Shown: piece after piece, positions 3,802 to 59,314 of the stretch
How positions within the stretch are numbered: position 1 is the first letter of the stretch
Layout of the letters: each line of letters begins with the position of its first letter
Source of the DNA: an uncultured Candidatus Saccharibacteria bacterium
GTDB lineage: Bacteria; Patescibacteriota; Minisyncoccia; Sungbacterales; JACQCQ01
Direction: 5' to 3'
DNA: 64,000 nt
NCBI GenBank assembly: GCA_964494945.1
Contig: CAZBTX010000002.1
Span: 38,696-102,695 of the forward strand
Program-made: the position numbers and the translations under genes
The notes under the pieces: model-generated
What the model was told of the DNA's origin: nothing
Database searches by the model: none
Seen by the model: only the letters and a program-made list of their open reading frames with translations

Positions 3802-4680
3802 ATGCTTATCTTGGTTAGAGAGTCCCTACCACGTTGGTATGGCCTCTCCTGGAGGCCGAAGGAAGTAGCTCTGGCTCTTTTCATCCATGATGAGTTCCTA
3901 CGAGAAGAAACGCGGCGAAGGATCGCCGATCCCGAGACCATCGAGGCAATAAAGCAGGAATTCAAGTTCGTCACTTTCGACGGCAGTTTCGAGACCGGCT
4001 TTGGGTTCGACGGCTCTCTCGCCTTCGAGAAGCGCGAGAATGACTTCCGATTTTTCCTCGCGCGCCTGCCGAAAATCCGCAGGCAACTCAAGTCGCACTG
4101 TAAGAGCTGCAGGGGTACCAAGAAGGACCAGTATCTGGGAGACAGGGAGTGCTTTGATTGCAGAGGCACGGGCAAAGAGGTGATTTATGACCACAAACCC
4201 GGCTACGCGCTCTCGGCGAGCCTAAACCTCTTCTTCCGAGCCGCCCGATTCATCGACCAGAAAACGTCGGCGAAACTTCCTCAGCTCTTCACCGTACACC
4301 TCGTAACAACACGGGGCATGCACGGTGCGGAGCTCGGCGGAGAGTACGGCATCGAGCTAGCGGATTGGCTACGCCGGCAAGTCGTTCAACAGAACCTCGA
4401 CGCCGTGACGGATGCAATGATGCAAGCTCACGGGAGGCTCATAGGAAATTATCTCTATGAGCGGTACCACTTCCGAGCAAGCGTTGGGAGTGCGAACGGC
4501 TCGCTCAATGTCAACTGCCCGGGAGATGCCTGCTGTCTCCATCCGGGTTACCGCGGCATTGAACCTGACGGGGGCTACGAGTTCTCTTCACACAACGTCG
4601 ACAATCCCCATCAGCAACTCACGCTCCTTGCGGGACTAGCCGCACTGCATGAGCGGGTGGATCAAGAGCTACCCGAGTAA
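3802..4680 (+). CDS. hypothetical protein with DnaJ-type CxxCxGxG zinc-finger pair (GC-rich island)
   Basis: AAGGAG Shine-Dalgarno 6 nt upstream of the ATG. Motifs CKSCRGTK and CFDCRGTG are present. GC-rich by eye. Its own terminator follows. Confidence 0.5.
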   Translation: MLILVRESLPRWYGLSWRPKEVALALFIHDEFLREETRRRIADPETIEAIKQEFKFVTFDGSFETGFGFDGSLAFEKRENDFRFFLARLPKIRRQLKSHCKSCRGTKKDQYLGDRECFDCRGTGKEVIYDHKPGYALSASLNLFFRAARFIDQKTSAKLPQLFTVHLVTTRGMHGAELGGEYGIELADWLRRQVVQQNLDAVTDAMMQAHGRLIGNYLYERYHFRASVGSANGSLNVNCPGDACCLHPGYRGIEPDGGYEFSSHNVDNPHQQLTLLAGLAALHERVDQELPE

Positions 4681-4681
4681 G

Positions 4682-4735
4682 ACCCATCGTCAGCAACAAA
4701 GAGGCCTGTTGCCGCGACGATGGGTTTCTTTGTTT
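4682..4735 (+). terminator. rho-independent terminator (nested hairpin)
   Basis: Stem cccatcgtc/gacgatggg encloses an inner gcaaca/tgttgc hairpin and is followed by tttctttgttt. Confidence 0.6.
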
Positions 4736-4751
4736 ATAAAAACTTGCGCTA

Positions 4752-6509
4752 ATGCTTAATTCATACTATCACTTGAGATACATTCTCATGTCGTTCGCCG
4801 AACTCAAAGAAAAAATCATAAAAAATTACGACACTACCGACATTACGCTTGTTGAACGTGCCTACAAATTCGCCGAAAAAGTCCATGAAGGACAAACCAG
4901 GAAATCGGGGGACGCCTATATCACTCACCCTCTAGCCATAGCTTCGGCGCTGGCCGATCTAAAATTAGACCAAGCCACTATCGCGGCCGCGCTCTTGCAT
5001 GACGTTATAGAAGACGGAGGTGCTACGGAGGACGACGTTAAAAAAGAATTCGGCGAAGATGTGGCCTTCCTGGTGGAGGGCGTCACCAAGCTCGGCAAAC
5101 TGAAATACCGCGGCGCGGAGAGGATGGCTGAATCCTTGCGTAAAATGTTCTTGGCTACCGCCGAGGACATTCGCGTGGTTTTAATTAAACTGATGGATCG
5201 CGCGCACAATATGGAGACCTTAAGGGCTTTGCCGGAAGAAAAGCAAAAACGCATCGCCCTAGAGACCCTGGAGATCTACGCGCCGCTGGCGGATCGCCTG
5301 GGGCTGGGCCAGTTAAAAGCACGGCTGGAAGACCTGGCTTTCCCCTATGTTTATCCCGAAGAATACCAATGGCTGCAAAATAACGTAAAAGAGGCGTTTA
5401 AAGAAAGAGTAAAATACATTGAGCATATAATGCCGGTAGTGCGCGAGTTGCTTTCCAAAGAAAACATTCCGGTGCTCGCCATGGATGCTCGGGCCAAGCA
5501 CCAATACAGCTTGTGGAGAAAACTCGCGAAATTTGACATGGACGTTACAAAAATCAACGACCTCGTGGCCCTTCGCATCATTGTCCCCACCGTTTCCGAC
5601 TGTTATCAGGCATTAGGAGCAATTCATGCCGGGTGGCGTCCGCTCCCCGGGAAAATCAAGGACTATATTGCTTTACCTAAACCCAACGGATACAAATCGC
5701 TTCACACCACCGTTTTCGGGCCTGACGGCGAAATTGTGGAATTTCAAATTAGGACCGAGGAAATGCATGAGGAAGCCGAGCATGGCATCGCGGCGCACTG
5801 GGCTTATAACGAACATAAAAAGACCAAAGGATATAAAACATCAGCGCCGTCCGAGGCCGACAAAGACAAGATACATTGGGTAAGCCAGTTAAAGGACTGG
5901 CAAAAAGACGTGCCCGACCCCAATGAATTCCTGAATTCCCTGAAAATTGAATTCTTCAAAAACCGCATCTTCGTTCTGACTCCCAAAGGAGACGCGATTG
6001 ACTTGCCGGAGGGCGCTACCGCGCTGGATTTTGCATACCATGTGCATTCTCAAATCGGGGATACCGCCTCGGGGGCTAGGGTTAACGGCAAAATGGTGCC
6101 ATTAAATCATGAGCTCTCCAATTTTGACGTGGCGGAAATAATTACGCAAAAAAATAAAAAGCCGAGCGCGGATTGGTTGGGGTTCGTAAAAACCTCCATG
6201 GCGCGCCGCCACATCACGTCCAAAATTCGCCGGGCCGAAGAAGACCGCAGATTTTCCGAGCATCAGGGTAAACAAATGGTGGAAGTCAGGGTTATCGCCA
6301 AAGATCGCGTGGGCTTGGTTAATGATCTAACAGCTGTTGTGGCTTCATTCAAGATCAACATTAAAGGCATGCGTACAGAAAGAGGTGAGCGTAGCCATCC
6401 TTTGGTTTTAATGAACTGCCCAGTAAAATCCAACGACGAAATGAGAAAACTCCTGATGAAATTAAAGAGCGTAAGGGGCGTGGAGGAAGTGGGTTATAGG
6501 ATTATCTAG
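4752..6509 (+). CDS. rel: bifunctional (p)ppGpp synthetase/hydrolase Rel/SpoT family
   Basis: HD domain (HDVIEDG), RelA/SpoT synthetase domain (NGYKSLHTTV), TGS domain (IFVLTPKGD) and C-terminal ACT domain. The true start may be at 4788 (MSFAELKEK). Confidence 0.8.
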   Translation: MLNSYYHLRYILMSFAELKEKIIKNYDTTDITLVERAYKFAEKVHEGQTRKSGDAYITHPLAIASALADLKLDQATIAAALLHDVIEDGGATEDDVKKEFGEDVAFLVEGVTKLGKLKYRGAERMAESLRKMFLATAEDIRVVLIKLMDRAHNMETLRALPEEKQKRIALETLEIYAPLADRLGLGQLKARLEDLAFPYVYPEEYQWLQNNVKEAFKERVKYIEHIMPVVRELLSKENIPVLAMDARAKHQYSLWRKLAKFDMDVTKINDLVALRIIVPTVSDCYQALGAIHAGWRPLPGKIKDYIALPKPNGYKSLHTTVFGPDGEIVEFQIRTEEMHEEAEHGIAAHWAYNEHKKTKGYKTSAPSEADKDKIHWVSQLKDWQKDVPDPNEFLNSLKIEFFKNRIFVLTPKGDAIDLPEGATALDFAYHVHSQIGDTASGARVNGKMVPLNHELSNFDVAEIITQKNKKPSADWLGFVKTSMARRHITSKIRRAEEDRRFSEHQGKQMVEVRVIAKDRVGLVNDLTAVVASFKINIKGMRTERGERSHPLVLMNCPVKSNDEMRKLLMKLKSVRGVEEVGYRII

Positions 6510-6520
6510 TTTTTGCCTTC

Positions 6521-7312
6521 TTATTTCTCTTTGCGTTTCCGTCTGAACCTAATGGGCCAAAAAGTTTCAATATCTTTTTTAGAAAAACCCCGTTGCCGAA
6601 GGAAATCTAAAACCTTGGTGGTTTTGGCTAATTCGGGCTCGTCGAGGTGGAGTTTCTGCAATTCTGCCCTCGTTTCTTCATCTAGATGGTGGAAAATTTC
6701 TGCAAATAATTCACGACTCGTTTCTACATCTAATACGCCTTCTTCTATGGCCTCAAACAGATCACTGAATGTCGCGTCTTGGGTAAGTGATACTGTTGTT
6801 AGAGCACCTTCGTTATCATCTTCTTTTTCCCTCAAAATTTCCCATTTCCTGTCTTTCTCCTTTTGTTTCTCTATTTTTTCTTTTTTTCTTTCTTCCTGAT
6901 TAAAAAGCTCCTTAGCGCGTCTATACTCTTCACTATCTATCCCATAAAGATACTCGGCGGCAACTATATTTGATGGTTGTTGCCCTAATAACTCTTGGTA
7001 AGTTCTGCGCGCTGTTTCTCTAACCTCATCTTCAGTAGCAATACCGGTGTTTCGAGCCATACGCAAAGCCATATCAACGCTATAACCCCTACGAAGGTCT
7101 GCTTTGATGACGCGGAGAGCGTATGTTTTTACTTTTTCTTCTGGTACTTCTATTTCTCTGGCTTTTTTTATTTGAGCCGCCCCTCCTTCCGAAGTATCCA
7201 GATCCTTAAGTATCCGCTCTCTTTTCTCACTCATCCCTTTTTGGTCTTCGGTCATAATTTCCTCCGCTTTCTGAAATTCTTCCGGCGTTGGGCTGTACTT
7301 TTCTTGAGGCAT
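6521..7312 (-). CDS. hypothetical Lys/Glu-rich coiled-coil protein
   Basis: Long ORF with a highly charged KE-rich central region. No recognisable domain. Lies directly downstream of parB. Confidence 0.45.
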   Translation of the reverse strand: MPQEKYSPTPEEFQKAEEIMTEDQKGMSEKRERILKDLDTSEGGAAQIKKAREIEVPEEKVKTYALRVIKADLRRGYSVDMALRMARNTGIATEDEVRETARRTYQELLGQQPSNIVAAEYLYGIDSEEYRRAKELFNQEERKKEKIEKQKEKDRKWEILREKEDDNEGALTTVSLTQDATFSDLFEAIEEGVLDVETSRELFAEIFHHLDEETRAELQKLHLDEPELAKTTKVLDFLRQRGFSKKDIETFWPIRFRRKRKEK

Positions 7313-8570: not shown

Positions 8571-8654
8571 GCCGCTGTGGCGAAATTGGCATACGCGATG
8601 GACTCAAAATCCATTGGGGGCAACCCCGTGTCGGTTCAACTCCGACCAGCGGCA
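8571..8654 (+). tRNA. tRNA-Leu (anticodon CAA), class II with long variable arm
   Basis: Hand-folded. Acceptor gccgctg/cagcggc, 3-bp D stem, anticodon stem atgga/tccat with loop cTCAAaa, a variable stem-loop, T arm gtcgg-ttcaact-ccgac, discriminator A. CCA is not encoded. Confidence 0.7.
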
Positions 8655-9916: not shown

Positions 9917-9956
9917 GTACTCACAGGACAATTCTATAGAATTGTCCTGTGAGTAC
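9917..9956. repeat. 40-bp perfect palindrome (18-bp arms around TATA)
   Basis: gtactcacaggacaattc-tata-gaattgtcctgtgagtac, followed by a second short palindrome ggagtcggactcc. Confidence 0.8.
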
Positions 9957-16380: not shown

Positions 16381-18999
16381 TTAAACCACAAAGTTAATCA
16401 ACCGATCACGAACGAAAACGACTTTTTGCGGCTCACTCGTCAAGAACTTGGCGGCTGCGGCATCTGCACGCACCGCGCTTTCGGCGTCTTTTTGTGAGAC
16501 ACCTCTTGGCAAATTTATCCTGCCACGCACCTTGCCATTTACCTGCACTATCAACTGAAACGTATCTTCATGAATAAGTTTTTCGTCATACGAAGGCCAA
16601 GAGGATTTATGAATTGAGCCCTTGTCTCTTTGCTGTCCCGATTCGCTTCGCGAATCGCGGATCCTCGATTTTTTGTCTGCGAAAAATCGGGACCATAACT
16701 CTTCCGCGATATGCGGCGCGAAAGGCGCTAATAATTGCAAAAATATTTTGACGTCTTCGCCCGAAACAGCCCCCGGAAACTCCTCAAACTCGTTCAAAAG
16801 TATCATGAGTGCCGAAATCGCTGTATTGTAGCGCAGCCCTACAATGTCTTCAGTTATTTTCTTAATTGTTCGATGAACTATTCTTTCCAACTTTTGATTT
16901 TTGAGTTGTAATTTTGATTTTTGACTTTTGATTTTTGATTTTTCAGAGTAGAACCTCCAAACCCGATTTAAGAATCTGGTCATCCCGGCAATCCCCGAAT
17001 CGCGAAAATCCCCGCCTTCCTGAAATGGTCCGGTAAACATCAAATAAAGTCGCAAGGCGTCAGCGCCGTAGGCCTTGATGTAATCGTCCGGATTTACAAT
17101 ATTCCCCTTGGATTTGGACATTTTGGCGCCGTCTTTGATTATGAGTCCGTGTGCACGAAATATCGTGAACGGCTCCTCAAAATCCAAAAGCTCCCAATCC
17201 TTGAATACCATCGTAAGAAACCGCGAGTACAAAAGATGCAGAACCGAGTGCTCCGCCCCGCCGATGTACATCTGGACAGGCAACCATCGCCGTGTAATTT
17301 CCTGATTCCACGGAATTTCTAATTCCGAATTTCTAATTCCTAAATTTGAACTTTTTGCATTCTCATTTTGAATTTTGATCTTTGAATTTTGCATTTTTAC
17401 GCTGGGATACCGAAGAAAGTACCAGGCCGAATCCAGAAAAGTATCGGAAACATCGGTTTCGCGACGCGCCTTAGCGCCGCACTTGGGACATTTTGTTTCG
17501 TAAAACGACTTAACTGACGCCAATGGCGACTGACCCGTCCCCGTGGGCCGAAAATTCTTGATAAACGGCAATTTTACCGGCAAATCTTTTTCCGGCACCG
17601 CCATCCAGCCCGGATTTTCCAGTTCGCCCTTATTAAATCCTTCCTTAATTTTGATTTTTGATTTTTGATTTTTGATTTTCCCCGCGCAGTTTTCACAGAA
17701 AACAAGCGGGATGGGCGGCCCCCAATAGCGCTGGCGCGAAATCAGCCAATCACGGATGCGATATGTGGTAACTTTTCTACCCTTTCCCTTTTCGCTAAGC
17801 CACTTCGTGATGGCAACCCTGGCCCCAGATGAAGTCATGCCACTGAACTGACCTGAGTCGTACAAAACTCCATCTTCTATAAAAACCCCTTCAATTTTTT
17901 CTTCATCGGCCGGTTTTATAGTTGGCTTCAGCGGTATATGGTATCTTTTCGCAAAAGCCACGTCGCGTTCATCGTGTGCGTCTCCAAATAGAGCACCGGT
18001 GCCAAAATTTATAAGCGCGTAGTCCGCAATCCAAATCGGTAACTCTTGGTTATTTAAGGGATTAACTGCTTTCGCTCCCCTTACTTCGATTCCTGTTTTT
18101 TCTCTTCCTTCAGCAGCCCGTTCAAGTTCAGACTTTTTAATTGCATTTTGAACGTAGTTTTCTATTTCTTTGCTATTTGATACTTGATTTTTTAATTCCC
18201 AGATTATCGGATGCTCCGGAGCCAACACTAAAAATGTAGCCCCCCAAAGCGTGTCTACTCTGGTGGTAAACACCTTGATACTTAAATTTTTGTTTTTAAT
18301 CTCAAAACTGATCTCCGTGCCCTCGGATTTTCCGATCCAATTCCTTTGAGCGATTTTTATTTTTTCCGACCAGTCAATTTTTTCAAGATTATTCAAGAGC
18401 CGCTCGGCATAATCCGTGGTCTTAAAAAACCATTGCTCCAGGTCTTTTTTTATGACCGCCGTGCCGCATCTTTCGCAATTCCCGTTTATGACCTGCTCAT
18501 CCGCCAGCACCGTTTTGCACGAAGGGCACCAATTAACTTTTGCCTTTTTGCGGTATGCCAAGCCGTGCTTAAACATCTGGACGAAAATCCACTGGGTCCA
18601 CTTGTAGTATTCTGGATCGTAGGTTTCTAGTCGCTCATTCCAGCTAAATCCGTTGCCGATGCTCGAAAGCTGCCGGTAAAAATTCTTTTCCGAAACCTTG
18701 GCCTGTTTGGCGGGGTGCTTGCCGATCTTCAGGGCGTAATTTTCCGAATGAATCCCGAAGCCGTCAAGTCCAATGGGCTCAAAAACGTCATGTCCTTGCA
18801 TGCGCTTAAAGCGCCCGTAAATGTCGGAGCCGGTAAAAGCGAAGACATTGCCCACATGAAGCCCCTCCGCCGAAGGATACGGGAACATCATTAAGTTGTA
18901 GTAGGGTCTCTTGGCTCCCTTAAAATTCGGCTCGTAGGTTTTATCCCTAAGCCATTTAGCTTGCCATTTCTTCTCAATTTTCGCCGGGTTGTAGCGCAT
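16381..18999 (-). CDS. leuS: leucyl-tRNA synthetase with three K/Q/S-rich low-complexity insertions
   Basis: HVGN (HIGH) and KMSKSKGN motifs plus a CP1 editing region. Insertions KIKNQKSKIKIKEG, KMQNSKIKIQNENAKSS and EKSKIKSQKSKLQLKNQK are encoded by (tgatttt)n repeats. Confidence 0.85.
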   Translation of the reverse strand: MRYNPAKIEKKWQAKWLRDKTYEPNFKGAKRPYYNLMMFPYPSAEGLHVGNVFAFTGSDIYGRFKRMQGHDVFEPIGLDGFGIHSENYALKIGKHPAKQAKVSEKNFYRQLSSIGNGFSWNERLETYDPEYYKWTQWIFVQMFKHGLAYRKKAKVNWCPSCKTVLADEQVINGNCERCGTAVIKKDLEQWFFKTTDYAERLLNNLEKIDWSEKIKIAQRNWIGKSEGTEISFEIKNKNLSIKVFTTRVDTLWGATFLVLAPEHPIIWELKNQVSNSKEIENYVQNAIKKSELERAAEGREKTGIEVRGAKAVNPLNNQELPIWIADYALINFGTGALFGDAHDERDVAFAKRYHIPLKPTIKPADEEKIEGVFIEDGVLYDSGQFSGMTSSGARVAITKWLSEKGKGRKVTTYRIRDWLISRQRYWGPPIPLVFCENCAGKIKNQKSKIKIKEGFNKGELENPGWMAVPEKDLPVKLPFIKNFRPTGTGQSPLASVKSFYETKCPKCGAKARRETDVSDTFLDSAWYFLRYPSVKMQNSKIKIQNENAKSSNLGIRNSELEIPWNQEITRRWLPVQMYIGGAEHSVLHLLYSRFLTMVFKDWELLDFEEPFTIFRAHGLIIKDGAKMSKSKGNIVNPDDYIKAYGADALRLYLMFTGPFQEGGDFRDSGIAGMTRFLNRVWRFYSEKSKIKSQKSKLQLKNQKLERIVHRTIKKITEDIVGLRYNTAISALMILLNEFEEFPGAVSGEDVKIFLQLLAPFAPHIAEELWSRFFADKKSRIRDSRSESGQQRDKGSIHKSSWPSYDEKLIHEDTFQLIVQVNGKVRGRINLPRGVSQKDAESAVRADAAAAKFLTSEPQKVVFVRDRLINFVV

Positions 19000-19086
19000 A
19001 CCGGGTAGTAGAAATTTGATTAAGCCGGGTTCGTTCGCCCGCCCGCGGCGGGCGAACCATCAAATTTTCACTACCCGGCATATACA
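18997..19086. mobile_element. MITE-like element with ~24-bp TIRs abutting leuS start codon
   Basis: TIRs cataccgggtagtagaaatttgat and atcaaattttcactacccggcatat flank an inner GC hairpin. The terminal cat is the leuS ATG on the minus strand. Confidence 0.55.
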
Positions 19087-19151
19087 AAGCTCACTATACA
19101 GGCGCTCTATCGCCGATTCAAGCCGAAACGGCGGACCCTTTTAACGCCTCG

Positions 19152-21629: not shown

Positions 21630-22008
21630 AACGTCTTATTAGCCATAGCATAATCCAAGCTCCCGCGACATCAACGATGATATCTAATGCGGTATCCAAG
21701 GCGTACCATAGAGGCCCGCCATACTCGGCTGGTGTCGCGGAAACCAAAAATTCTATGACCTCAAAGACCGCTCCGATTAAGAAAACTGAAAAGAGAAGTA
21801 CTTTAGTCCGCGGGAAATAAGGATAGAAAAGACCGGCAACCAGCGCCCCTCCCAGAGTATGTACTGCTTTATCCCATTGGGGGAATAGGGTCCCGGTAGG
21901 CAAACCCGACGCCCAGAAATCCAAAAGGAACAGCAAAAGCAAAAGAAAAAGGGCGATGACTTGCCCCCCGGCAATCCCGGTCAGATCTGCTCTTGCCTTA
22001 CCAATCAT
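21616..22008 (-). CDS. small membrane protein, VanZ-like (tentative)
   Basis: 4 TM segments. KAVHTLGGALVAG resembles VanZ. Overlaps the metG start by 14 nt. Confidence 0.35.
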   Translation of the reverse strand: MIGKARADLTGIAGGQVIALFLLLLLFLLDFWASGLPTGTLFPQWDKAVHTLGGALVAGLFYPYFPRTKVLLFSVFLIGAVFEVIEFLVSATPAEYGGPLWYALDTALDIIVDVAGAWIMLWLIRRFGHE

Positions 22009-23051
22009 GCGCTGCTCTGCCTGCGTTTTTTCTTATCAAAATCATTCAGAAGCTCCACTAATACGGCGGTTACCGGCACCGCCAGCAAAAGTCCCAGAAT
22101 TCCCGCGAGTTCCGCGCCTATCAAAAGCGCTATAACCACCACGATCGGTGAAATGCCGAATGTGGTTTTCATTACCAGGGGTACCACAATGTGCGATTCC
22201 AACTGCTGCACCACTACATAAAGAATAATTACCATCAGCGCCAAAAAGGGACTTTGAAGAAAAGCTATCAAGGTAGCCGGAACAGCCGCCAGTATCGGCC
22301 CCGCGATGGGCACTAATTCAAAAATAGCGGCAATAAATGCGAATACCAAAGCGTATTTTACGTTAAGAAGCGTTAAACCAAGGTAGATCCCGACCCCTAT
22401 CAGGGCCCCCAAAAGCAGCTGGGCCCTCAACCACTGCCCCATTTTTTTCTGCGCCCTAAGCCACAGATCCACTGAATAGCTTTCGTATTTTAGGGGCAGA
22501 GCTATACGTATAAAGTCCTCGATCCCCTTTTCTTTTATGGCAAGATAAAATGACACCACTATCAGGATAACTACCGAAAATGCCCCACCGAAAAAACCGG
22601 AAGTGAACGACACCACCCCACTGGAAAATCCAGAGATATACTGTGACGGCTCCGCTAATAGGCCGCGGGCGTTTTCCCGAATGAAATCGATGAACGGTAA
22701 ATTACCGATACCCTGAATTTCACGCAAAACCTGCCGTTCAAATATCGGATAGGTAAGAGTGAAGCCCTGCAGTTCTTCCGCGAGCAACGGCACTATAAGA
22801 TAAACGGCGAATACCAGAGTTGAGATGGCCGCCAAAAAAATAAGTATAGTGGATAAAATCCGCGGAACGCGGAGACGCTGGAACCACTCAATGGCGGGTT
22901 CCATGGCCGAAGCCAGAACCACCGCAAATAAAAGTATCGCTACGATATCCCGTAACATATACAGCAGTACCAGCCCGAGTATCACGGAAAAGAACCTGAC
23001 CATTGTCCAGGTAGAGATATCAACGTAGTGGCGATTAACTTGTATTTGCAT
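22005..23051 (-). CDS. AI-2E family transporter (PerM/UPF0118)
   Basis: Multi-TM protein with AI-2E-like topology and conserved C-terminal region. Confidence 0.55.
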   Translation of the reverse strand: MQIQVNRHYVDISTWTMVRFFSVILGLVLLYMLRDIVAILLFAVVLASAMEPAIEWFQRLRVPRILSTILIFLAAISTLVFAVYLIVPLLAEELQGFTLTYPIFERQVLREIQGIGNLPFIDFIRENARGLLAEPSQYISGFSSGVVSFTSGFFGGAFSVVILIVVSFYLAIKEKGIEDFIRIALPLKYESYSVDLWLRAQKKMGQWLRAQLLLGALIGVGIYLGLTLLNVKYALVFAFIAAIFELVPIAGPILAAVPATLIAFLQSPFLALMVIILYVVVQQLESHIVVPLVMKTTFGISPIVVVIALLIGAELAGILGLLLAVPVTAVLVELLNDFDKKKRRQSSA

Positions 23052-23190
23052 ATCGGGTAGTAGAACTTCGGATAAGTAATAATACTATGAAACTACCGAT
23101 TTTCTTGCTTACAAGCAAATTTATTGAGTAAATCCCGTTATAAAATAATAGTCCGCTCTATCCCATCCGGAGTTTCACTACCCGACATAG
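23049..23190. mobile_element. MITE-like element filling the spacer between two minus-strand genes
   Basis: TIRs catatcgggtagtagaacttcggat and atccggagtttcactacccgacatag. The left terminal cat is the ATG of the 22005-23051 gene. The right end abuts the stop of the M16 gene. Confidence 0.55.
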
Positions 23191-27783: not shown

Positions 27784-27922
27784 TGAGAATAATTATACCC
27801 CGTTAGAAATAGCATAAAAAGAACGAGATATGATGTGGGAGCTATTATATAACTAAGAACGGTTAGTATCTAAATGCTGGCTGCTAAATTTCTAACGGGG
27901 TATACCCCAATATTCAGTAGGG

Positions 27923-35877: not shown

Positions 35878-36310
35878 GGGAGCGCACTGATTCGACAGGT
35901 CATTTACATCAAGAAGAATTCAGATCGAGATGCCGAGCAACTCTCGCCTTGCCCTTCCGAATCTGTCATTTGACGGAGAATGAGGGTAAAAGAAATCTCG
36001 GCAAAACAAATACGTGCAAACGTATTCAAATTCAATGGCGCTTTTGCGCCCGCTATGGCGTAAGCCGTAGTTGCTTTCTCCGAAAAGAACTTCGGAGCAT
36101 CGGCCCGTACTCGCCCCTAGGCGGATTGCCGGTGTCATTTGGGGCTTGATTGCACTAACTCCGGTATGTGTGACGACAATTGCCGGAAACAGTCATGGGA
36201 TATTTTGCCGAATTTCAGAACCCATGAGTGAAATTAAATTCGGATATATCTGTAAATTATTTTTCTTGATGCTGACCTGGACGCGGGCTCATTACCCGCC
36301 GCTTCCACCC
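35878..36310 (+). ncRNA. ssrA: tmRNA (ssrA)
   Basis: 5' GGGAGCGCACUGAUUCGACAGG matches the tmRNA 5' consensus. The 3' end GGACGCGGGCUCAUUACCCGCCGCUUCCACC gives a T arm plus an acceptor that pairs with the 5' end. Putative tag ORF GCA AAC ... UAA at 36017-36064 encodes ANVFKFNGAFAPAMA. Confidence 0.75.
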
Positions 36311-40383: not shown

Positions 40384-40465
40384 TATTCTATGTACTCTAT
40401 TTTGGTACTCTATTCCAACTGTTAATACCCTATGCTATGCTATAGCATGACATAGAGTACATAGA
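40384..40465. repeat. composite palindrome: 16-bp TIRs around ATGCTATAGCAT core
   Basis: attctatgtactctat ... atagagtacatagaat with a central tatgctatagcatg. Confidence 0.6.
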
Positions 40466-40470
40466 ATAAA

Positions 40471-41076
40471 ATGGGTATAGACAAGCATGGCAGGGTTAGC
40501 TATATCATGATGACGCGGAAGGGAGAAATTGCGAGATTAATATTGGGGATTCTCGCGGGGGCTGGAGTAGTTTTAGTCGCGGCCACGCTCCCCGGACTCG
40601 CGGTAGCGCTGAAGCCGTTCGCGCGAAAGAAAAACAAGCATCTTGAAAAACAAAGTCTTGAGCGAGCCCTCCGGCGCCTTTGCCAAAGACGACTGGTTGA
40701 ATTAGTGCCTGACCGCAATGGCAACTTTTCGCTGTTAGTCACCAAACTTGGTAAAAAACATCTCAAGAAACTGGACTTCGAGAGTTTAAAGCTTAAAATC
40801 CCAGAATATTGGGACGGAAAGTGGAGTGTGATACTTTTTGATATACCGGAATCGCGCAAAGCGGCTCGTAATGCGCTCCAACGAAAATTAAAAGAGATGG
40901 GCTGTTTCCAACTCAACAAAAGTGTGCTTGTACACCCCAGTGACTGTGAGGATGAGATAGATTTCACCAGTGAAATACTTGGGATCAGAAACTATGTAAT
41001 AACTTTTCAAACAACGTCTTTGGGACACCAAGAACATCGGGCCTTACACCACTTTAAGTTAAAACCGAGATCATAA
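40471..41076 (+). CDS. membrane-anchored winged-helix protein with Cas2/VapD-like C-terminal domain (tentative)
   Basis: N-terminal TM helix, a wHTH-like LERALRRLCQRRLVELV, then WSVILFDIPESRKAARNALQRKLKEMGCFQLNKSVLV, which resembles the Cas2 beta-alpha-beta core. Confidence 0.4.
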   Translation: MGIDKHGRVSYIMMTRKGEIARLILGILAGAGVVLVAATLPGLAVALKPFARKKNKHLEKQSLERALRRLCQRRLVELVPDRNGNFSLLVTKLGKKHLKKLDFESLKLKIPEYWDGKWSVILFDIPESRKAARNALQRKLKEMGCFQLNKSVLVHPSDCEDEIDFTSEILGIRNYVITFQTTSLGHQEHRALHHFKLKPRS

Positions 41077-41136
41077 CAAAGACTTTAACTACAAATCGAC
41101 AACATCAAAAAACACACCGCATACGTTCTACACACT

Positions 41137-41174
41137 CCTACCCTATACCATGCTATAGCATGGTATAGGGTAGG
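41137..41174. repeat. 38-bp perfect palindrome with ATGCTATAGCAT core
   Basis: cctaccctataccatgctatagcatggtatagggtagg. Confidence 0.8.
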
Positions 41175-41200
41175 AATTGGTCTTATTCACTTTATGTGAA

Positions 41201-43541: not shown

Positions 43542-44156
43542 CTAAAAAAGAGTTAATGGCCCGGATGGCTTGCCGGCATTAAACACTCCGACTGGCGTCG
43601 GCGCATCTTCTTTTAATAACTCCGGCAGTTTTTTAAAACTATTTTCCAGTTCTTTTAAGACCGCGCCGGCGCGGAGCGCGGCCGCGGGATGGAACATGGG
43701 AATTACGCGCCTTCCATCTACCCAAAAAACTTTGCCTTGATCGCGAGAAATTTTGGCCTCCGGCAAAAAATAATTCATGGAGAATCTCCCCAGGGGCACG
43801 ATAGCCTTGGCATCAATTATCTCAATTTGTTTTGCTAGATACGGCTTGTATGCCTCAATTTCTTCCGGCAAAGGGTCTCGGTTTTCCGGCGGGCGGCGCT
43901 TCACGATATTGGTGATATAAACCTCCTCGCGTTTCCAACCGTTGGCCAATATTAATTTATCCAAAAGTTTTCCGGCATTCCCCACGAAGGGGCGCCCGAG
44001 CCGGTCTTCGTGAAATCCCGGCGCTTCACCAATGAATAAAACATCAGTATCCGGACTCCCTTCGCCAAATACCAGATTGGCTTCTCCGTAAAGCGGCAAA
44101 GACTTATCTTTGACTATTTGCTCTTTTAATTCCTCCAATGCTTCGCTTTTAGACAT
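43542..44156 (-). CDS. udg: uracil-DNA glycosylase family 4
   Basis: GEAPGFHEDRLGRPFVGNAGKLL motif. Confidence 0.7.
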   Translation of the reverse strand: MSKSEALEELKEQIVKDKSLPLYGEANLVFGEGSPDTDVLFIGEAPGFHEDRLGRPFVGNAGKLLDKLILANGWKREEVYITNIVKRRPPENRDPLPEEIEAYKPYLAKQIEIIDAKAIVPLGRFSMNYFLPEAKISRDQGKVFWVDGRRVIPMFHPAAALRAGAVLKELENSFKKLPELLKEDAPTPVGVFNAGKPSGPLTLF

Positions 44157-44313
44157 ACCCGGTAGTAGAAACTCGAATTACGTTTTAGTTATTATATTCT
44201 GATTTTAATCAATATACCCGTATCCCTGAACTAAACCGAATTAGGTATTATCCCATATGGCTTCGCCTTCGAGTTTTCCCTGCCCGCCGGCAGGCGGGAC
44301 TACCGGGCATATC
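44154..44313. mobile_element. MITE-like element (left TIR starts at udg ATG)
   Basis: Left TIR catacccggtagtagaaactcgaa. Right end ggactaccgggcatat. Confidence 0.45.
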
Positions 44314-44393
44314 AGGTAGTGAAAATTCAACTGCTGTGACATTTGATGTTTCGCGAAGCGAAACATCCGTCGAATTTCTACTACCTAGCATAT
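44309..44393. mobile_element. MITE-like element, tandem to previous
   Basis: TIRs catatcaggtagtgaaaattcaac and gtcgaatttctactacctagcatat around an inner gatgtttcgc-gaa-gcgaaacatc hairpin. Abuts the stop codon of the 44395 gene. Confidence 0.55.
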
Positions 44394-44394
44394 A

Positions 44395-45537
44395 TCAAAA
44401 ACATCTGGCGATACCGGCACATGTTCTAGTAATCTCATAAATAACGCCGAGCATGAACATCGCGACCATCCCGTAAGCCGCTAACGCGGGAAAACGCCCG
44501 AGAACGCAGTGAACCGAAAGTGACTTCCACATACTGACAATCAAAACACCTTCGGTGCCTATCGTAAGAGCCCCTACGAAACTTATGACGCGAATAAAAT
44601 CAGAAATGCCCATAGCCACCAGGATAAACGGGAGAAACGAGGTAATGACCCAGGCCAAATTCTTTTTAACACCAAAATCTATATTAAGCAGTTCTTTGAA
44701 GGTAAGTCCGACGCCAATAAACGAAGTGATAATCGCCAAAAATCCGATGAGATTCCCTAAAATCGCCGCCGGCTCACCGAGTTTCTCCGCAATTCCCGAA
44801 ATCGCGTCCTGCGATACACCGCCGCCGCTGGAAGCCAATATGGCGGCGGTGAATAAGGAGTAAAGTACGGCTGGCGCCAGCGTCCCCCAGAGAATAACGG
44901 ACCTTAAATAACGGCCATCACTCGCCAATGTTTCTCGCACCCGAGGTATCACTGATGTTCCAGCTAGAGCGAAAAGAATTACACCGTAGGGTATCGCGGC
45001 GCGACTTACGTCAATTTTGGCGATAAACCCGAAGTTCCCAAAAAGAATCCCCAGAGTTATCAAGACGACCATGAAAAAAATCAGCATGGCGGAAAATACG
45101 CCGTTGATCTCGGTGGAGATCCAAGAATTGTAGAAAAAAACCGAAAGGCCGGTCACCAAAAATAAGATCACGGCCGCGTGATAGGTGAAATCGCCGAGCC
45201 AAGGCGCCATAAGCGCTCCAAGAAATTTTGTGCCCAGAATTACGTAAACCACCATAGCCCCCAAAAGTCCGGCGGATGATGATGCCGACGCGACCGCGCG
45301 CCATGATCTTCCCAAATAGTGCGAAACGTATCCCGGCAGTTGATGGAGCTCGGGGCGAGAAAGCACAATATCGCCATACATAAGATGAATGGCCAGTATC
45401 ACGCCGGTCAAAAATACAAGTTCTAAAACACCTAATAAAAATCCGGTTTGGGCGATAACGTAAGGTAACGCGAACATCCCCACCCCGATGATGGTACCAA
45501 CCAAGAGTGCCAGCGCTTGAAAGTAGCGGGCATTCAT
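44395..45537 (-). CDS. amino-acid permease-like transporter (about 11 TM)
   Basis: Polytopic protein. The N-terminal GVGMFALP motif resembles aromatic amino acid permeases. Confidence 0.4.
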   Translation of the reverse strand: MNARYFQALALLVGTIIGVGMFALPYVIAQTGFLLGVLELVFLTGVILAIHLMYGDIVLSRPELHQLPGYVSHYLGRSWRAVASASSSAGLLGAMVVYVILGTKFLGALMAPWLGDFTYHAAVILFLVTGLSVFFYNSWISTEINGVFSAMLIFFMVVLITLGILFGNFGFIAKIDVSRAAIPYGVILFALAGTSVIPRVRETLASDGRYLRSVILWGTLAPAVLYSLFTAAILASSGGGVSQDAISGIAEKLGEPAAILGNLIGFLAIITSFIGVGLTFKELLNIDFGVKKNLAWVITSFLPFILVAMGISDFIRVISFVGALTIGTEGVLIVSMWKSLSVHCVLGRFPALAAYGMVAMFMLGVIYEITRTCAGIARCF

Positions 45538-45542
45538 ACGAT

Positions 45543-46121
45543 TTATACCGAGGCAACTTTCTCTTTTTTAACCAGCTCTATCACTTTTTCCACCAACTTC
45601 TTAGGGTCGGCATCATAAATGATCTTCCCCGGCCCGCGATGGGATTTAGCCACAATTTCGTCAATTTCGTCAGCCGTGCCGCCGGTATCCGTTAATACGC
45701 CGATGGGTTTGTTGTCTTCAAAAGCATCCGTGAATTCATTTAAGGTTCCGATTCTGCCACAGGAAAAAATCACGGCGTCAGCCGAGCGCGTCAGCAGTAA
45801 ATTTCTGCCAGAGTAGCCAAATCCCGTGTAAACTATCAAATCGTGATAATCCAAGGGGAGTTTATACTCTTCCACATGTTCTCTTTCGGTGGCGGCCGGC
45901 GAGATGCCAATGATAAATCCTCCGGCTTCTTTGGCGCCAATAGCTGCCCAATATGGTGCCCCGGTGGTAGCGCCCGTTACCAAAACCGCGTTGCTTAGAG
46001 CGATCTGACGACCAAGTTCCTTGGTCATGGGAAGGGCATTGGGCGCGCAGTGGCCGGTCTCGGCCGCGCCCGAGACCGCGATTTTCAATTTCAAATGCAT
46101 GTGGGCTTCTTTGCCATTCAT
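45543..46121 (-). CDS. LOG/TIGR00725-family Rossmann-fold protein
   Basis: IAVSGAA...GATTG...GGxGTLNE pattern. Confidence 0.45.
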   Translation of the reverse strand: MNGKEAHMHLKLKIAVSGAAETGHCAPNALPMTKELGRQIALSNAVLVTGATTGAPYWAAIGAKEAGGFIIGISPAATEREHVEEYKLPLDYHDLIVYTGFGYSGRNLLLTRSADAVIFSCGRIGTLNEFTDAFEDNKPIGVLTDTGGTADEIDEIVAKSHRGPGKIIYDADPKKLVEKVIELVKKEKVASV

Positions 46122-48173: not shown

Positions 48174-48245
48174 CGCCCTCGACAGGAATCGAACCTGTAC
48201 CGCGCCCTTCGGAGGGGCGCATTGTGTCCATTCAACTACGAGGGC
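48174..48245 (-). tRNA. tRNA-Arg (anticodon CCG)
   Basis: Hand-folded on the minus strand. Acceptor gccctcg/cgagggc, D stem gttg/caat, anticodon stem cgccc/gggcg with loop cTCCGaa, T arm acagg-ttcgatt-cctgt, discriminator G. Confidence 0.7.
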
Positions 48246-56225: not shown

Positions 56226-56267
56226 CCGGCCGCTCTCCTCGGGGAGAGCGGCCGGACTCACTTTTTA
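56226..56267. terminator. bidirectional rho-independent terminator
   Basis: 13-bp stem ccggccgctctcc/ggagagcggccgg with a T-run. Confidence 0.6.
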
Positions 56268-57649
56268 ATATCTTTTTTCTTTTTCAACACCGCTTGGTTT
56301 TCTTGGTCGGCCCTAGGTTGGTAATATTTCCTCCCGCGCAATTTCTCCGGCAAATGTTCCTGCGAAACTTTAGCATCCAAAAAATCATGGGCATATTTAT
56401 ATCCTTTGTGATATCCCAGATCTTTCATGAGCTTAGTTACCGCATTCCTTAAATGTAGCGGGACGGGCAAAGCGCCGTGTTCTTTTGCGTCAGACAACGC
56501 GGCCAAAAGTCCAGTATACGAAGCGTTGGACTTCGGCGCCAAAGCCAGATAGGTCGCGCCGTGCGCTAAGTTGATCATGGCTTCCGGCATCCCCACATGC
56601 TCCACGGCTTCTGCTACAGCAATAGCTACCACTAATGCCGTTGGCAGGGCGTTTGAAATATCTTCCGAGGCAAAAATTATCATGCGGCGCGCAATGAATC
56701 TCGGGTTTTCTCCCGCCTCCACCATGCGCGCGAGCCAATACAAAGCCCCGTCCGGATCCGAATCGCGCATGGATTTGATGAAGGCCGAGATGACGTTATA
56801 ATGCTCCTCGCCTTTTTTGTCGTATCTTATGGCTTTTTTCTGGAGGGCATCCTCCACCATCTTTTTTGTAATCTTTATACTCTTAGCGGCATCTTTGCTC
56901 ACCGTCTTATTCTCTAATTCGCGCGAATTAGAGAATGCGGTATTCGGGGTGGAGAGAACAATAAATTCCAGCGCATTCAGCGCCACTCTAGCATCTCCGT
57001 CGGCAAATCCAATCACAGCGTGCTTGGCGTCCTCGTCCAACTTGGCCTTGCGCGTTCCTAATCCACGCGCCAAGTCGGAAAGTGCTCTATCAATAATATT
57101 TTCAAGCGCATCATCAGTAAGCGGTTCTAAAACCAAAACCATGGAACGGGAAAGTAGAGGCGAGTTAAGTTCAAAAGAAGGATTTTCGGTGGTGGCACCG
57201 ATTAAAATAATCGTGCCGTTTTCCACGTAAGGCAAAAAGGTGTCCTGCTGGGCTTTGTTGAAGCGGTGGATCTCGTCAACGAATAAAATGGTTTTGCGTT
57301 TTTCAAACTTCAGTCGCCTTTTGGCGTCTTCAATCAGTTTGCGCAGCTCCGGGACGCCGGAAGTGGCCGCCGAAAACGGCTGAAAAAATCCTTTGGTCTT
57401 TTCCGCGATGATGCGCGCCAGCGTAGTTTTGCCGGTTCCCGGCGGACCCCACAAAATCACCGACCGCAACTCGTCTTTTTCAATGGCTGTTCGCAAGGGC
57501 TTCCCCTTCCCCACAATCTCATCCTGCCCGTGAAAATCGCCGAAATCCCGCGGCCGCATGCGCTCGGCCAACGGCTCCATGCCTTTTATATTTTCTTCAA
57601 ATAAGTCAGTCACAGTGAAACTATTATACTCCCGCCGTCCCGAAGGCAT
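56258..57649 (-). CDS. rarA: replication-associated recombination protein A (AAA+ ATPase) carrying in-frame palindromic insertion
   Basis: GPPGTGKTT Walker A and MgsA_C region. An FSNSRELEN insert is encoded by the 28-bp palindrome. Confidence 0.75.
   Translation of the reverse strand: MPSGRREYNSFTVTDLFEENIKGMEPLAERMRPRDFGDFHGQDEIVGKGKPLRTAIEKDELRSVILWGPPGTGKTTLARIIAEKTKGFFQPFSAATSGVPELRKLIEDAKRRLKFEKRKTILFVDEIHRFNKAQQDTFLPYVENGTIILIGATTENPSFELNSPLLSRSMVLVLEPLTDDALENIIDRALSDLARGLGTRKAKLDEDAKHAVIGFADGDARVALNALEFIVLSTPNTAFSNSRELENKTVSKDAAKSIKITKKMVEDALQKKAIRYDKKGEEHYNVISAFIKSMRDSDPDGALYWLARMVEAGENPRFIARRMIIFASEDISNALPTALVVAIAVAEAVEHVGMPEAMINLAHGATYLALAPKSNASYTGLLAALSDAKEHGALPVPLHLRNAVTKLMKDLGYHKGYKYAHDFLDAKVSQEHLPEKLRGRKYYQPRADQENQAVLKKKKDIKK
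56909..56936. repeat. 28-bp perfect palindromic element inside rarA
   Basis: attctctaattcgcgcgaattagagaat. Confidence 0.85.
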
Positions 57650-57726
57650 ATCAGGTAGTAGAAATTCGAACAAGCAACCACTTGTTCGCCGTAAGCTAAC
57701 ACTCGGATTTTCACTACCCGGCATAT
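57647..57726. mobile_element. MITE-like element abutting rarA start codon
   Basis: TIRs catatcaggtagtagaaattcgaac and ctcggattttcactacccggcatat around an inner gaacaag/cttgttc hairpin. Confidence 0.55.
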
Positions 57727-58580: not shown

Positions 58581-58626
58581 GCTCCCTACTCTATCTTATG
58601 CTATAGCATAAGATAGAGTAGGGAGC
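58581..58626. repeat. 46-bp perfect palindrome with ATGCTATAGCAT core
   Basis: gctccctactctatcttatgctatagcataagatagagtagggagc, between convergent genes. Confidence 0.8.
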
Positions 58627-58982: not shown

Positions 58983-59217
58983 TTTTGATTTCGACCTTTG
59001 GCGCGACTTTTTGTTTTACCACCACGCCAGAATTTAAACCGCCGTCAACCGGTGCTTCACGCAGCCGGGATTTGGTGTGGGGGTTAAAAAATTTCTCTAT
59101 TAAAAGTTTTATCTTCTCTCTGGCTTCCGGAGTATCGTTAAATTGACGGCGGATAGCCGCTTTTTCCTGCCTGATATGCCGTCTAAGACCCTTGGAAAGT
59201 CGCGCAAATTCAACCAT
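58891..59217 (-). CDS. small basic hypothetical protein
   Basis: ORF only. The Lys-rich C-terminus ends in an A-run shared with the next ORF. Confidence 0.35.
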   Translation of the reverse strand: MVEFARLSKGLRRHIRQEKAAIRRQFNDTPEAREKIKLLIEKFFNPHTKSRLREAPVDGGLNSGVVVKQKVAPKVEIKNETPVVSKEPVKKEKKNAKRPQSRPRKAVK

Positions 59218-59265
59218 AACCTAAAGAGCATAACAGGTAGCAGAAATTCTAACAAGTAACTACCA

Positions 59266-59303
59266 GCGTACCCCCTCCCACTACGATACTCTAGAGTATC
59301 GTA
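59266..59303. repeat. 38-bp perfect palindrome (TCTAGA core)
   Basis: cctcccactacgatactctagagtatcgtagtgggagg. Confidence 0.8.
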
Positions 59304-59314
59304 GTGGGAGGAAT

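Follow-up and report, generated by a model that had tools for sequence, protein, structure and literature searches.

Why should short inverted-repeat units in a compact genome end exactly on the start codons of genes? The question arises from a 64-kb stretch of a Candidatus Sungbacteria genome (the window, meaning the whole stretch of DNA analysed), where a first-pass annotation noticed intergenic units with long terminal inverted repeats (TIRs) whose outermost CAT coincides with the ATG of the downstream gene. It left two options: a mobile family of the MITE type (miniature inverted-repeat transposable elements) that targets or creates start codons, or a conserved 5'-leader RNA. We found that the units are mobile, duplicate their target, prefer T-ATG sites, insert with a marked polarity, and are linked to one clade of GIY-YIG nuclease genes. 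From the sequence comparisons presented here, we consider it probable that they belong to a family of 305-327-bp GIY-YIG elements and their MITEs, widespread in Patescibacteria (the candidate phyla radiation, CPR), which lands on T-ATG starts and regenerates them.

All six repeat sites in the window were confirmed, as five complete elements and one internally deleted remnant in 64 kb, all of them small and gene-less. Read in the sense of the downstream gene, a complete copy consists of TATG, YCN-GGTAGTGAAAAYYCGA, a variable interior, TCGARTTTCTACTACC-N'GR and again TATG, and the inverted arms measure about 22 nt in all five (repeat search and approximate-match scan). The 13-nt core GGTAGTRRAAAYT, with one mismatch allowed, occurs 11 times in the window (0.71 expected) and the 25-mer TIR consensus three times (0 expected). 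An arm scan with four mismatches found only these arms, the rest being noise at chance level. In window coordinates, the sites are:

E1: 18997-19082, minus strand; element proper 19001-19078, TATG copies at 19079-19082 and 18997-19000
E1 arms: 19004-19019 and 19060-19075, minus strand; from the arm scans
E2: 23049-23189, minus strand; element proper 23053-23185, TATG copies at 23186-23189 and 23049-23052
E3: 44154-44311, minus strand; element proper 44158-44307, 3' TATG at 44154-44157, 5' TATG at 44308-44311 in common with E4
E4: 44308-44392, minus strand; in tandem with E3, element proper 44312-44388, 5' TATG at 44389-44392
E5: 57647-57725, minus strand; element proper 57651-57721, TATG copies at 57722-57725 and 57647-57650
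Internally deleted remnant: 59229-59267, minus strand; complete 3' arm at 59236-59251 and the GGTAGT of the 5' arm at 59259-59264

The first-pass annotation had placed the elements correctly, and their exact ends were corrected by the duplicated TATG and by the TATG that E3 and E4 have in common. What it had called a solo end at 59229-59268 is an internally deleted copy that keeps the GGTAGT of the other arm; the ATG of this remnant (59229-59231) opens no long open reading frame (ORF), and the neighbouring gene starts at 59217. Within the tandem pair, E4 has its arm polarity flipped when compared to the other window copies, with the GTAGAAA arm upstream. Tandem arrays with one common TATG are frequent in other genomes too.

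Four genes had been proposed to start at the outermost CAT of an element. This holds for three of them, all confirmed by Pfam: the ATG of leuS (18997-18999; ORF 16381-18999, 872 amino acids) lies inside the TATG of E1 at 18997-19000, that of an AI-2E transporter gene (ORF 22005-23051, 348 amino acids) inside the TATG of E2 at 23049-23052, and that of udg (ORF 43542-44156, 204 amino acids, a family-4 uracil-DNA glycosylase) inside the TATG of E3 at 44154-44157. For the fourth gene, rarA/mgsA, the ATG (57647-57649) does lie within the TATG of E5 at 57647-57650, but it is internal to the longest ORF: the mechanical call (56258-57724) runs through E5 from an upstream in-frame ATG without meeting a stop and adds 25 codons. 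The Pfam domains of RarA back the proposed start, since they fit the shorter 463-amino-acid form (start at 57649) and not the 488-amino-acid call from the ATG at 57724. The idea that each element exactly fills its spacer was right for E2, with the stop TAA of an M16 peptidase gene 2 nt before its 5' TATG, and for E3 plus E4, where the 5' TATG of E4 comes 2 nt after the stop TGA of a permease gene (44395-44397). It was not right for E1, upstream of which 111 nt remain, including a promoter-like TGTATAGT of leuS, nor for E5, which sits in a divergent intergenic region.

To follow the family beyond the window, a GTDB-based collection with one genome per species (596 Gb) was scanned for the pattern GGTAGTAGAAAYTYGA, leaving flank and partner arm unconstrained. 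Roughly a thousand hits are expected by chance for a pattern of such length in 596 Gb. The scan gave at least 119 loci, and among the matches listed (119 loci) at least 76 copies have two arms, with the second arm 55-317 nt upstream; the genome-scan figures given below hold for these listed matches. Nearly all of the two-armed copies are in metagenome-assembled genomes (MAGs) labelled Patescibacteria, and most have direct-repeat flanks, so that the genome-wide search came out on the side of the mobile family. The host labels are Saccharibacteria, Parcu-, Doudna-, Harrison-, Portnoy-, Jorgensen-, Nealson-, Yanofsky-, Lipton-, Komeili- and Sungiibacteria, and 'Patescibacteria group'. Judged by their arms, the window copies belong to one family common to very distant CPR lineages; a strain-specific repeat was ruled out by this occurrence. 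The gene-less copies have unrelated interiors and lengths of 55-160 nt, and at least 12 copies are present in the sampled loci of one Parcubacteria MAG.

Matches in non-CPR genomes have no partner arm, save in a few bins with doubtful labels. Two-armed copies were seen in bins labelled Gammaproteobacteria (one MAG: L020, L024, L060 and L118) and Bdellovibrionales (L039), and a locus with a Woesearchaeota label (L092) has the 3' arm only, followed by CGGTATG. Copies under labels other than Patescibacteria reflect either mis-binning and mislabelling or transfer beyond the CPR. The same pattern matched 35 times in 2.9 million viral contigs (IMG/VR); the element was not seen there, as none of the 35 has a partner arm or TGGTATG, and we regard these matches as chance.

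The copies carry the signature of insertion. An exact 4-nt direct repeat flanks 49 of the 76 two-armed copies, and a 3- or 5-nt repeat flanks 8 more. Sixteen of the 49 exact repeats are not TATG (CTCA, CTTG, AAAG, AATA, AAAA, CCTC, CATA, AATG, TATA and others), with p about 2e-18 under a generous chance of 1/64 per pair. A hairpin does not account for direct repeats that vary in sequence, and the flanking TATG is thus a 4-bp target-site duplication (3-5 bp overall, mostly 4).

Orthologous sites without the element were found at two loci. In related Sungbacteria, the gene order LDcluster4 - amino-acid permease - udg - major facilitator superfamily (MFS) gene is kept, and the junctions compare as follows, together with those in front of leuS:

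Permease-udg junction in L219 and L220 (udg 71% identical): stop TAA, then CATGA-TATG-TCGAAAGC; empty
Permease-udg junction in L222 (udg 77% identical): TAA-CGA-TATG-GCA; empty
Permease-udg junction in the window: TGA-TA-TATG, E4, TATG, E3, TATG-TCTAAAAGC
leuS locus in L259: TGTATAGT-N12-ATGCGCTATAAC; no element, single ATG
leuS locus in the window: TGTATAGT-N10-TATG, E1, TATGCGCTACAAC
leuS locus in L258: a different copy of about 150 nt at the same ATG
Extended -10-like box TGTATAGT of leuS in the window: 19093-19100, minus strand; upstream of E1, 10 nt before its 5' TATG

The udg spacer measures 238 nt in the window vs. 4-6 nt in the empty relatives, and three TATG accompany two elements (n+1). 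At leuS, TGTATAGT is kept in the window, in the occupied L258 and in the empty L259, 7-12 nt from the first ATG; from its match to the consensus, we infer that it is the leuS promoter. The empty udg and leuS sites support mobility and refute a vertically conserved leader as the origin: the elements are not at the same position in all relatives. As a side observation, L258 has a reverse-transcriptase (RVT_1) gene at 181-1281, between tatD and leuS, where the window has just the spacer and E1. Proteins identical to those of the window occur in NCBI GCA_016181625.1.

If the gene-less copies are mobile, do they have a coding partner? Two copies of the genome scan, about 315 nt long, contain an ORF for a GIY-YIG protein of about 90 amino acids; the two proteins, one from a Komeilibacteria and one from a Harrisonbacteria MAG, are 69% identical. 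A protein search retrieved 538 cluster representatives at E <= 1e-8, and their taxon-specific source names are all Patescibacteria, with a few given just as 'bacterium'. Loci with the coding partner include L062, L115 and L120-L132. Every fetched context has the same frame: TATG, CCA-GGTAGTGAAAATTCGA, 8-14 nt, ATG…ORF…TAA, (G), TCGAATTTCTACTACC-TGG, and then TATG with the host gene. In a metagenome scan with the family alignment, both arms stand at fixed distances in 75 of 80 loci of this GIY-YIG clade, and are decayed or interrupted in the remaining five. The coding elements are 305-327 bp long, plus one of 344 bp. Across about 225 loci, none of the two-armed elements found exceeded 344 bp, and neither another gene nor a transposase was seen between the arms.

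The arms co-vary between lineages, as GGAAGTG/CACTTCC, GGCAGTG/CTACTGCC or AAATGCGA/TCGCATTT. A more divergent GIY-YIG relative in L220 has different arms, again inverted (CCCGGTGTTACA…TGTAACACCGGG), and still a TATG duplication; it is inserted between udg and the MFS gene, at a site that is empty in the window and in L218. Coding elements of 308 bp, 99.1-99.7% identical, were found at two loci with nothing else in common, each on a start codon and each adjoining a short gene-less copy. In many gene-less copies, the 15 nt or so that lead up to the 3' arm (…TTCGATGAnAAAAG) are similar to the sequence coding for the nuclease C-terminus (…TCGAAAAATTAAG), which fits an origin by internal deletion.

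The gene-less copies have the structure of MITEs: TIRs, target duplication, presence/absence polymorphism, and a small, multi-copy and non-coding body. Since the arms recur around a coding partner (75 of 80 loci) whose only gene is the GIY-YIG nuclease, we read the window copies as MITE-like derivatives. The proposal of a MITE-like mobile family is therefore upheld by the duplications (including those other than TATG), the empty udg and leuS sites, the near-identical copies at unrelated loci, and the coding partner.

Two further groups of GIY-YIG genes were observed on the way. A coding subfamily (L135-L137, L140, L141, L144, L153, L161, L164 and L200) is inserted not at start codons but in surroundings of the GGTGGACCGG type that recur from copy to copy, where the duplication is TGGA or GGA; its flanks look like part of another repeat. 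Other CPR genes for YhbQ-like GIY-YIG proteins are located directly downstream of tRNA genes (L007 at about 6500-6800, L015 at about 1950-2250, L096 at about 4550-4850 and L103 at about 440-700); they are framed by a different conserved sequence (…CACTTCGACTCGCTTCGC… / …GCGAGGCGAAGTGCCCTGAGCC…), without the present arms, and may be further GIY-YIG-associated elements.

At the protein level, the enclosed ORF matches Pfam GIY-YIG (PF01541, E 1e-16), and only GIY-YIG/T5orf172 domains were found. The catalytic residues Tyr6, Tyr17, Arg27, His31 and Glu51 are invariant in the family alignment, and the protein consists of the catalytic core of about 90 amino acids with no further DNA-binding domain. 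The closest solved sequences are UPF0213 BH0048/EF2693 (1zg2, 1ywl), followed by SLX1. An AlphaFold2 model (mean predicted local distance difference test, pLDDT, 85) retrieved the same UPF0213/SLX1 structures with Foldseek, and I-TevI was a weak match in both searches (sequence E 0.014, Foldseek E 1.7). On sequence grounds, the protein is assigned to the YhbQ/UPF0213-SLX1 branch of the GIY-YIG superfamily and not to the I-TevI branch. Among 1.84 billion representatives at 50% identity, 10 matched below 1e-30 and 3,248 below 1e-10. The arm-associated clade is tight (65-75% identity) despite its wide host range, which suggests either horizontal spread or strong constraint.

An element always has two different arms, GTGAAAA on one side and GTAGAAA on the other; this holds within the window and for practically all copies found elsewhere. 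Because of this GA/AG swap, the folded strand of either polarity has a tandem G·U(T)/A·C mismatch at a fixed place. In all five window elements, folding places the AUG in a paired terminal stem (z -3.2 to -6.7), as in the RNA folds of E1 (-51.6 kcal/mol, z -6.7) and E2 (z -4.2). The outermost three element positions (YCN/N'GR) vary, yet they are complementary in 61 of the 76 listed copies, plus 6 with G·U. A search of the whole window at the Rfam gathering thresholds gave no match at any element; the matches were a tmRNA and two tRNA genes (35878-36310, 8571-8654 and 48174-48245).

Several features of the arms and interiors were noted in addition. In 46% of copies, vs. 1% for interior segments, the GTGAAAA arm is followed by a GC-rich hairpin whose sequence varies (in E1, 19029-19053). 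About 20 nt past that hairpin, gene-less copies of 100-160 nt (e.g., L001, L006, L064 and L087) often have a (C)TGGYA(TAAT) motif, noted by eye in many copies of 120-135 nt; it is similar to an extended -10 box and equally to the 3' end of the element itself. The Cas12a repeat handle opens with the same letters as the arm string AATTTCTACT; neither array spacing nor a cas gene is present in our case, and we take the likeness to be a coincidence. Finally, the 5' arm of E3 contains an insertion:

20-nt GC palindrome: 44279-44298, no strand assigned; inserted into E3's 5' arm, with GGTAGT directly on one side and GAAAA on the other

This perfect palindrome, CCTGCCTGCCGGCAGGCAGG (CCCGCC… in the window), occupies the same arm position between GGTAGT and GAAAA in the window, L035 (about 593-612), L036 and L054. 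Insertions of this type were thus seen in elements of four different CPR lineages, and the insertion point is the conserved mismatch site of the arm. Either the palindrome marks a subfamily that spread horizontally, or it is a second, precisely targeted mini-element.

How general is the coincidence with start codons? We collected 158 unique insertion sites, 97 gene-less and 61 coding. At 96 of them, the TTTCTACTACC arm is followed four bases on by an ATG with an ORF of 60 codons or more. The start codon is one base off at 8 sites (3-bp ATG duplication) and on the other strand, beside the other arm, at 7; at 6 more sites, the ATG is followed by another element or a short ORF. Element polarity with respect to the ATG is 102:9 (about 11:1, some 90% fixed; p about 2e-21). 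Reconstructed targets have T at -1 in 87% and are AT-rich upstream; 8 of 85 upstream regions have Shine-Dalgarno-like motifs and 32 of 85 have TAnnnT within -16 to -5. By crude ORF calls and in this one window only, TATG occurs 400 times on both strands, with 319 in coding sequence, 21 at T-ATG starts and 52 elsewhere, so that start codons make up 21 of the 73 non-disruptive TATGs (29%) vs. 46 of 50 insertions (p about 8e-21).

Thus, the coincidence is real: most surviving insertions are on a gene start, and the host regains its ATG from the downstream copy of the duplication. The first-pass annotation was right that the element end coincides with start codons and effectively re-creates them. 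Beyond its view were the CAT as half of the 4-bp TATG duplication, the spread of the family over many Patescibacteria lineages and the GIY-YIG-encoding parent. Recognition of start codons as such, which would include non-ATG starts, was rejected because copies with CTTG, CGTG or CCTG duplications open no ORFs; the enzyme seems to read a sequence (nnTG, best TATG) and not a start codon. The excess at true starts then needs an additional cause, for which selection and some feature of the initiation region are candidates. We attribute the coincidence to three factors: a T-ATG preference, a duplication that gives the ATG back, and selection in a compact genome largely without Shine-Dalgarno sequences.

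The window genome is 89% coding, and most of its genes have no Shine-Dalgarno sequence; many have a -10-like TAnnnT box 6-12 nt before the ATG (e.g., 27784-27813, 45538-45567 and 41046-41075). These sequence features suggest that leaderless or near-leaderless mRNAs are widespread in this Sungbacteria genome. The upstream TATG copy of an insertion keeps the host initiation context. The nuclease ORF is open and in frame from this captured ATG in 26 of 36 distinct ORFs (MPGSENS(T/I)xI-MF(Y/H)YVY…; p about 2e-6), and its stop lies 20-21 nt before the host ATG in 38 of 47. In E5, the upstream ATG reads in frame into rarA. Length classes favouring such in-frame read-through into the host gene were looked for, and no excess was seen. 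As E1 stands in front of the essential leuS, the arrangement must permit expression; a secondary effect of the hairpin on host expression is possible.

We propose the following course of events. The GIY-YIG protein would be the enzyme by which the element moves, recognising the arms when they are folded into a hairpin or cruciform and nicking targets at TATG; the gene-less copies, including all those in the window, would have been moved in trans. Hairpin or cruciform recognition is plausible because of the structure-specific SLX1/YhbQ branch, the invariant stem mismatch and the polar insertion; attC sites and IS200/IS605 ends, which are recognised as folded single strands, parallel the last two. 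In a near-leaderless gene, the 5'-proximal ATG would be the whole initiation signal, and an element landing there would gain expression. The host ATG could then be reached in one of three ways: re-initiation after the element ORF or a short upstream ORF (uORF), transcription from an internal promoter, or cleavage of the long hairpin. Duplication would make insertions at start codons harmless, and selection would retain them. A bolder version goes further: a DNA transposon family driven solely by a GIY-YIG nuclease, the first of its kind and, at 305-327 bp, the smallest known autonomous mobile element, spread horizontally across Patescibacteria with hundreds of its gene-less derivatives left ahead of genes, essential ones among them, in which the element takes the host start codon for its own translation and the duplication returns a fresh ATG to the host. 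To this version we give a chance somewhat short of even, and we put it forward tentatively.

Several results weigh against the GIY-YIG element reading. The GIY-YIG gene of this clade was not found in the 64-kb window by tblastn. We know of no GIY-YIG enzyme that performs strand transfer; these enzymes hydrolyse DNA, so the joining of the ends to a staggered cut would have to rely on host repair. At 41 of the 158 sites, the context is another one, with no recognisable start codon; these include the GGTGGACCGG-context subfamily, a stop codon (pnp in L130) and Shine-Dalgarno-like GGAG sites. The crude, single-window nature of the TATG census counts here as well. The hairpins pair the AUG of host genes, leuS among them, and two candidate routes of host translation drew no support: a conserved uORF ending at the 3' arm (translational coupling) was rejected for the gene-less copies, whose stops are scattered, and a consensus scan for a sigma-70 promoter in E3/E4 was not above shuffles. 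Wherever contigs encoded an identical udg or AI-2E protein, the same elements were present, and polymorphism within the population was thus not seen. Interior identity within one genome is a modest 0.68 vs. a background of 0.60, and a recent burst within one genome was rejected on this figure.

The most serious alternative is that of ordinary MITEs moved in trans by a conventional transposase (e.g., DDE) encoded elsewhere, with the GIY-YIG gene as a passenger or a colonising homing gene. TIRs with a 3-5 bp target duplication are the classic DDE signature, strand transfer is not known for GIY-YIG nucleases, and the YhbQ-like genes beside tRNA genes show that such genes also occur in unrelated contexts in CPR. 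Against it, the genes of this clade sit exactly between the arms, at constant distances from either end, in 75 of 80 loci, and a divergent relative has co-diverged arms. The resemblance of the MITE 3' interior to the C-terminal coding end of the nuclease, the preferential frame of the ORF with the captured ATG, and the lack of any element above 344 bp or other transposase between the arms in the 225 or so loci also speak against it, and we hold this alternative to be unlikely. A free-standing GIY-YIG homing endonuclease gene, spreading by double-strand-break repair ('intron-less homing') and leaving the short copies as products of decay in place, would account for presence and absence at the same locus between related genomes and for an ORF wedged between conserved genes with little disturbance, as is typical of phage seg/mob-type genes. 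Homing makes neither target duplications nor inverted termini, though, and it leaves unexplained a 99%-identical element at two otherwise unrelated loci, gene-less copies with unrelated interiors at many unrelated genes of one 64-kb window, and a protein without a DNA-binding domain beyond its core of about 90 amino acids; it is highly improbable.

The second option of the first-pass annotation, a structured 5'-leader RNA (thermometer, riboswitch or RNase III site) that is vertically conserved and sequesters the start codon, draws on the folding results: in each of the five copies the AUG is paired in the terminal stem and the z-score is significant, the outermost positions are mostly complementary, and 46% of copies have a stable hairpin after the 5' arm. 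Transposon ends would be expected to show complementary arms just as well. With empty orthologous sites, duplications of variable sequence, unrelated downstream genes at unrelated loci, interiors that are unrelated and range from 55 to 160 nt, coding versions, and no Rfam match, a leader RNA fails as the origin of the family, and we see only a remote chance for it. REP/REPIN-like palindromic units mobilised by a RAYT (HUH/Y1) transposase come to mind because the arms contain GTAG and because REPINs and IS200/IS605 ends also form hairpins with conserved mismatches. Units of these kinds leave no target duplication on insertion, but duplications flank the present elements; in the loci that were looked at, though not systematically searched for it, a Y1/HUH gene appeared neither between the arms nor next to them, and the consistently enclosed gene is a GIY-YIG gene, which makes this last alternative barely credible. 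The GIY-YIG element with its MITEs thus stays as the probable explanation.

Apart from the elements, the window contains a second intergenic repeat family, formed by perfect palindromes of 40-46 nt with the core ATGCTATAGCAT (40437-40448, 41136-41175 and 58581-58626; three matches to the core vs. 0.06 expected in the window). Perfect palindromes were also found at 9917-9956 and 59274-59311.

Should the GIY-YIG protein prove to be the mobility enzyme, it would represent a new enzyme class in prokaryotic DNA transposition and set a new lower size limit, about 0.3 kb, for an autonomous element. A single repeat family in very distant CPR lineages implies horizontal exchange among these episymbionts. 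The precise harmlessness of landing on a start codon and regenerating it ties transposon biology to Shine-Dalgarno-less and leaderless initiation, and hairpins of 20-25 bp over the AUG of genes such as leuS are natural test cases for initiation by CPR ribosomes. For annotation, the elements are a source of systematic artefacts in CPR genomes, such as the rarA product of 488 vs. 463 amino acids and inflated intergenic spacers; many GIY-YIG proteins in databases begin with the arm-encoded MPGSENS, which is another pitfall. A nuclease of 90 amino acids with a defined DNA structure and a tetranucleotide preference could also be of practical interest.

How does the family compare to known systems? 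We found no published description of such an element in a literature search that left most subscription journals outside. Judged from its gene and ends, the coding partner is not an insertion sequence (IS) of a recognised class (DDE, DEDD, HUH, serine or tyrosine), and it is not an I-TevI/seg-type homing endonuclease gene either, as it has no DNA-binding domain and does have duplications and arms. Conservatively, the overall architecture is classified as IS/MITE-like.

Among short repeats, the window copies recall the Correia/NEMIS elements of Neisseria, which are likewise short, numerous, intergenic, non-coding units with TIRs of about 22-26 nt and a target duplication, often beside gene starts. 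In both, co-transcribed arms can form a long RNA hairpin and presence is polymorphic between relatives. This resemblance is functional only: Correia elements have 26-bp inverted repeats, duplicate TA and give transcripts that are processed by RNase III, whereas the target here is T-ATG with a 4-bp duplication, and the arm sequence differs from the Correia repeat. Unlike Correia/NEMIS, the present elements end exactly on the start codon (polarity about 11:1), have an invariant GA/AG arm asymmetry and a partner that codes for a GIY-YIG nuclease and no recognised transposase, and form a family common to many CPR lineages of class or phylum level.

With the IS200/IS605 family, the elements have in common a very small enzyme, a tetranucleotide target, strict polarity, and imperfect hairpins with conserved mismatches; that family, however, has an HUH/Y1 transposase, subterminal hairpins instead of TIRs, and no target duplication. 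Like the T4 seg genes and other relatives of I-TevI, the coding element is a selfish gene with a GIY-YIG nuclease as its sole product, placed between host genes with little disruption. It differs from them in being reduced to the core of about 90 amino acids, in its inverted arms and target duplication, in its many unrelated loci and gene-less derivatives, and in belonging to the YhbQ/SLX1 branch. The closest relatives in sequence and fold, with the catalytic residues kept, are UPF0213 (YhbQ, BH0048 and EF2693) and SLX1. Those are chromosomal genes of repair or of unknown function, and the literature search found none that is framed by inverted repeats or mobile. SLX1 cuts branched and stem-loop DNA, which fits an element able to extrude a hairpin or cruciform.

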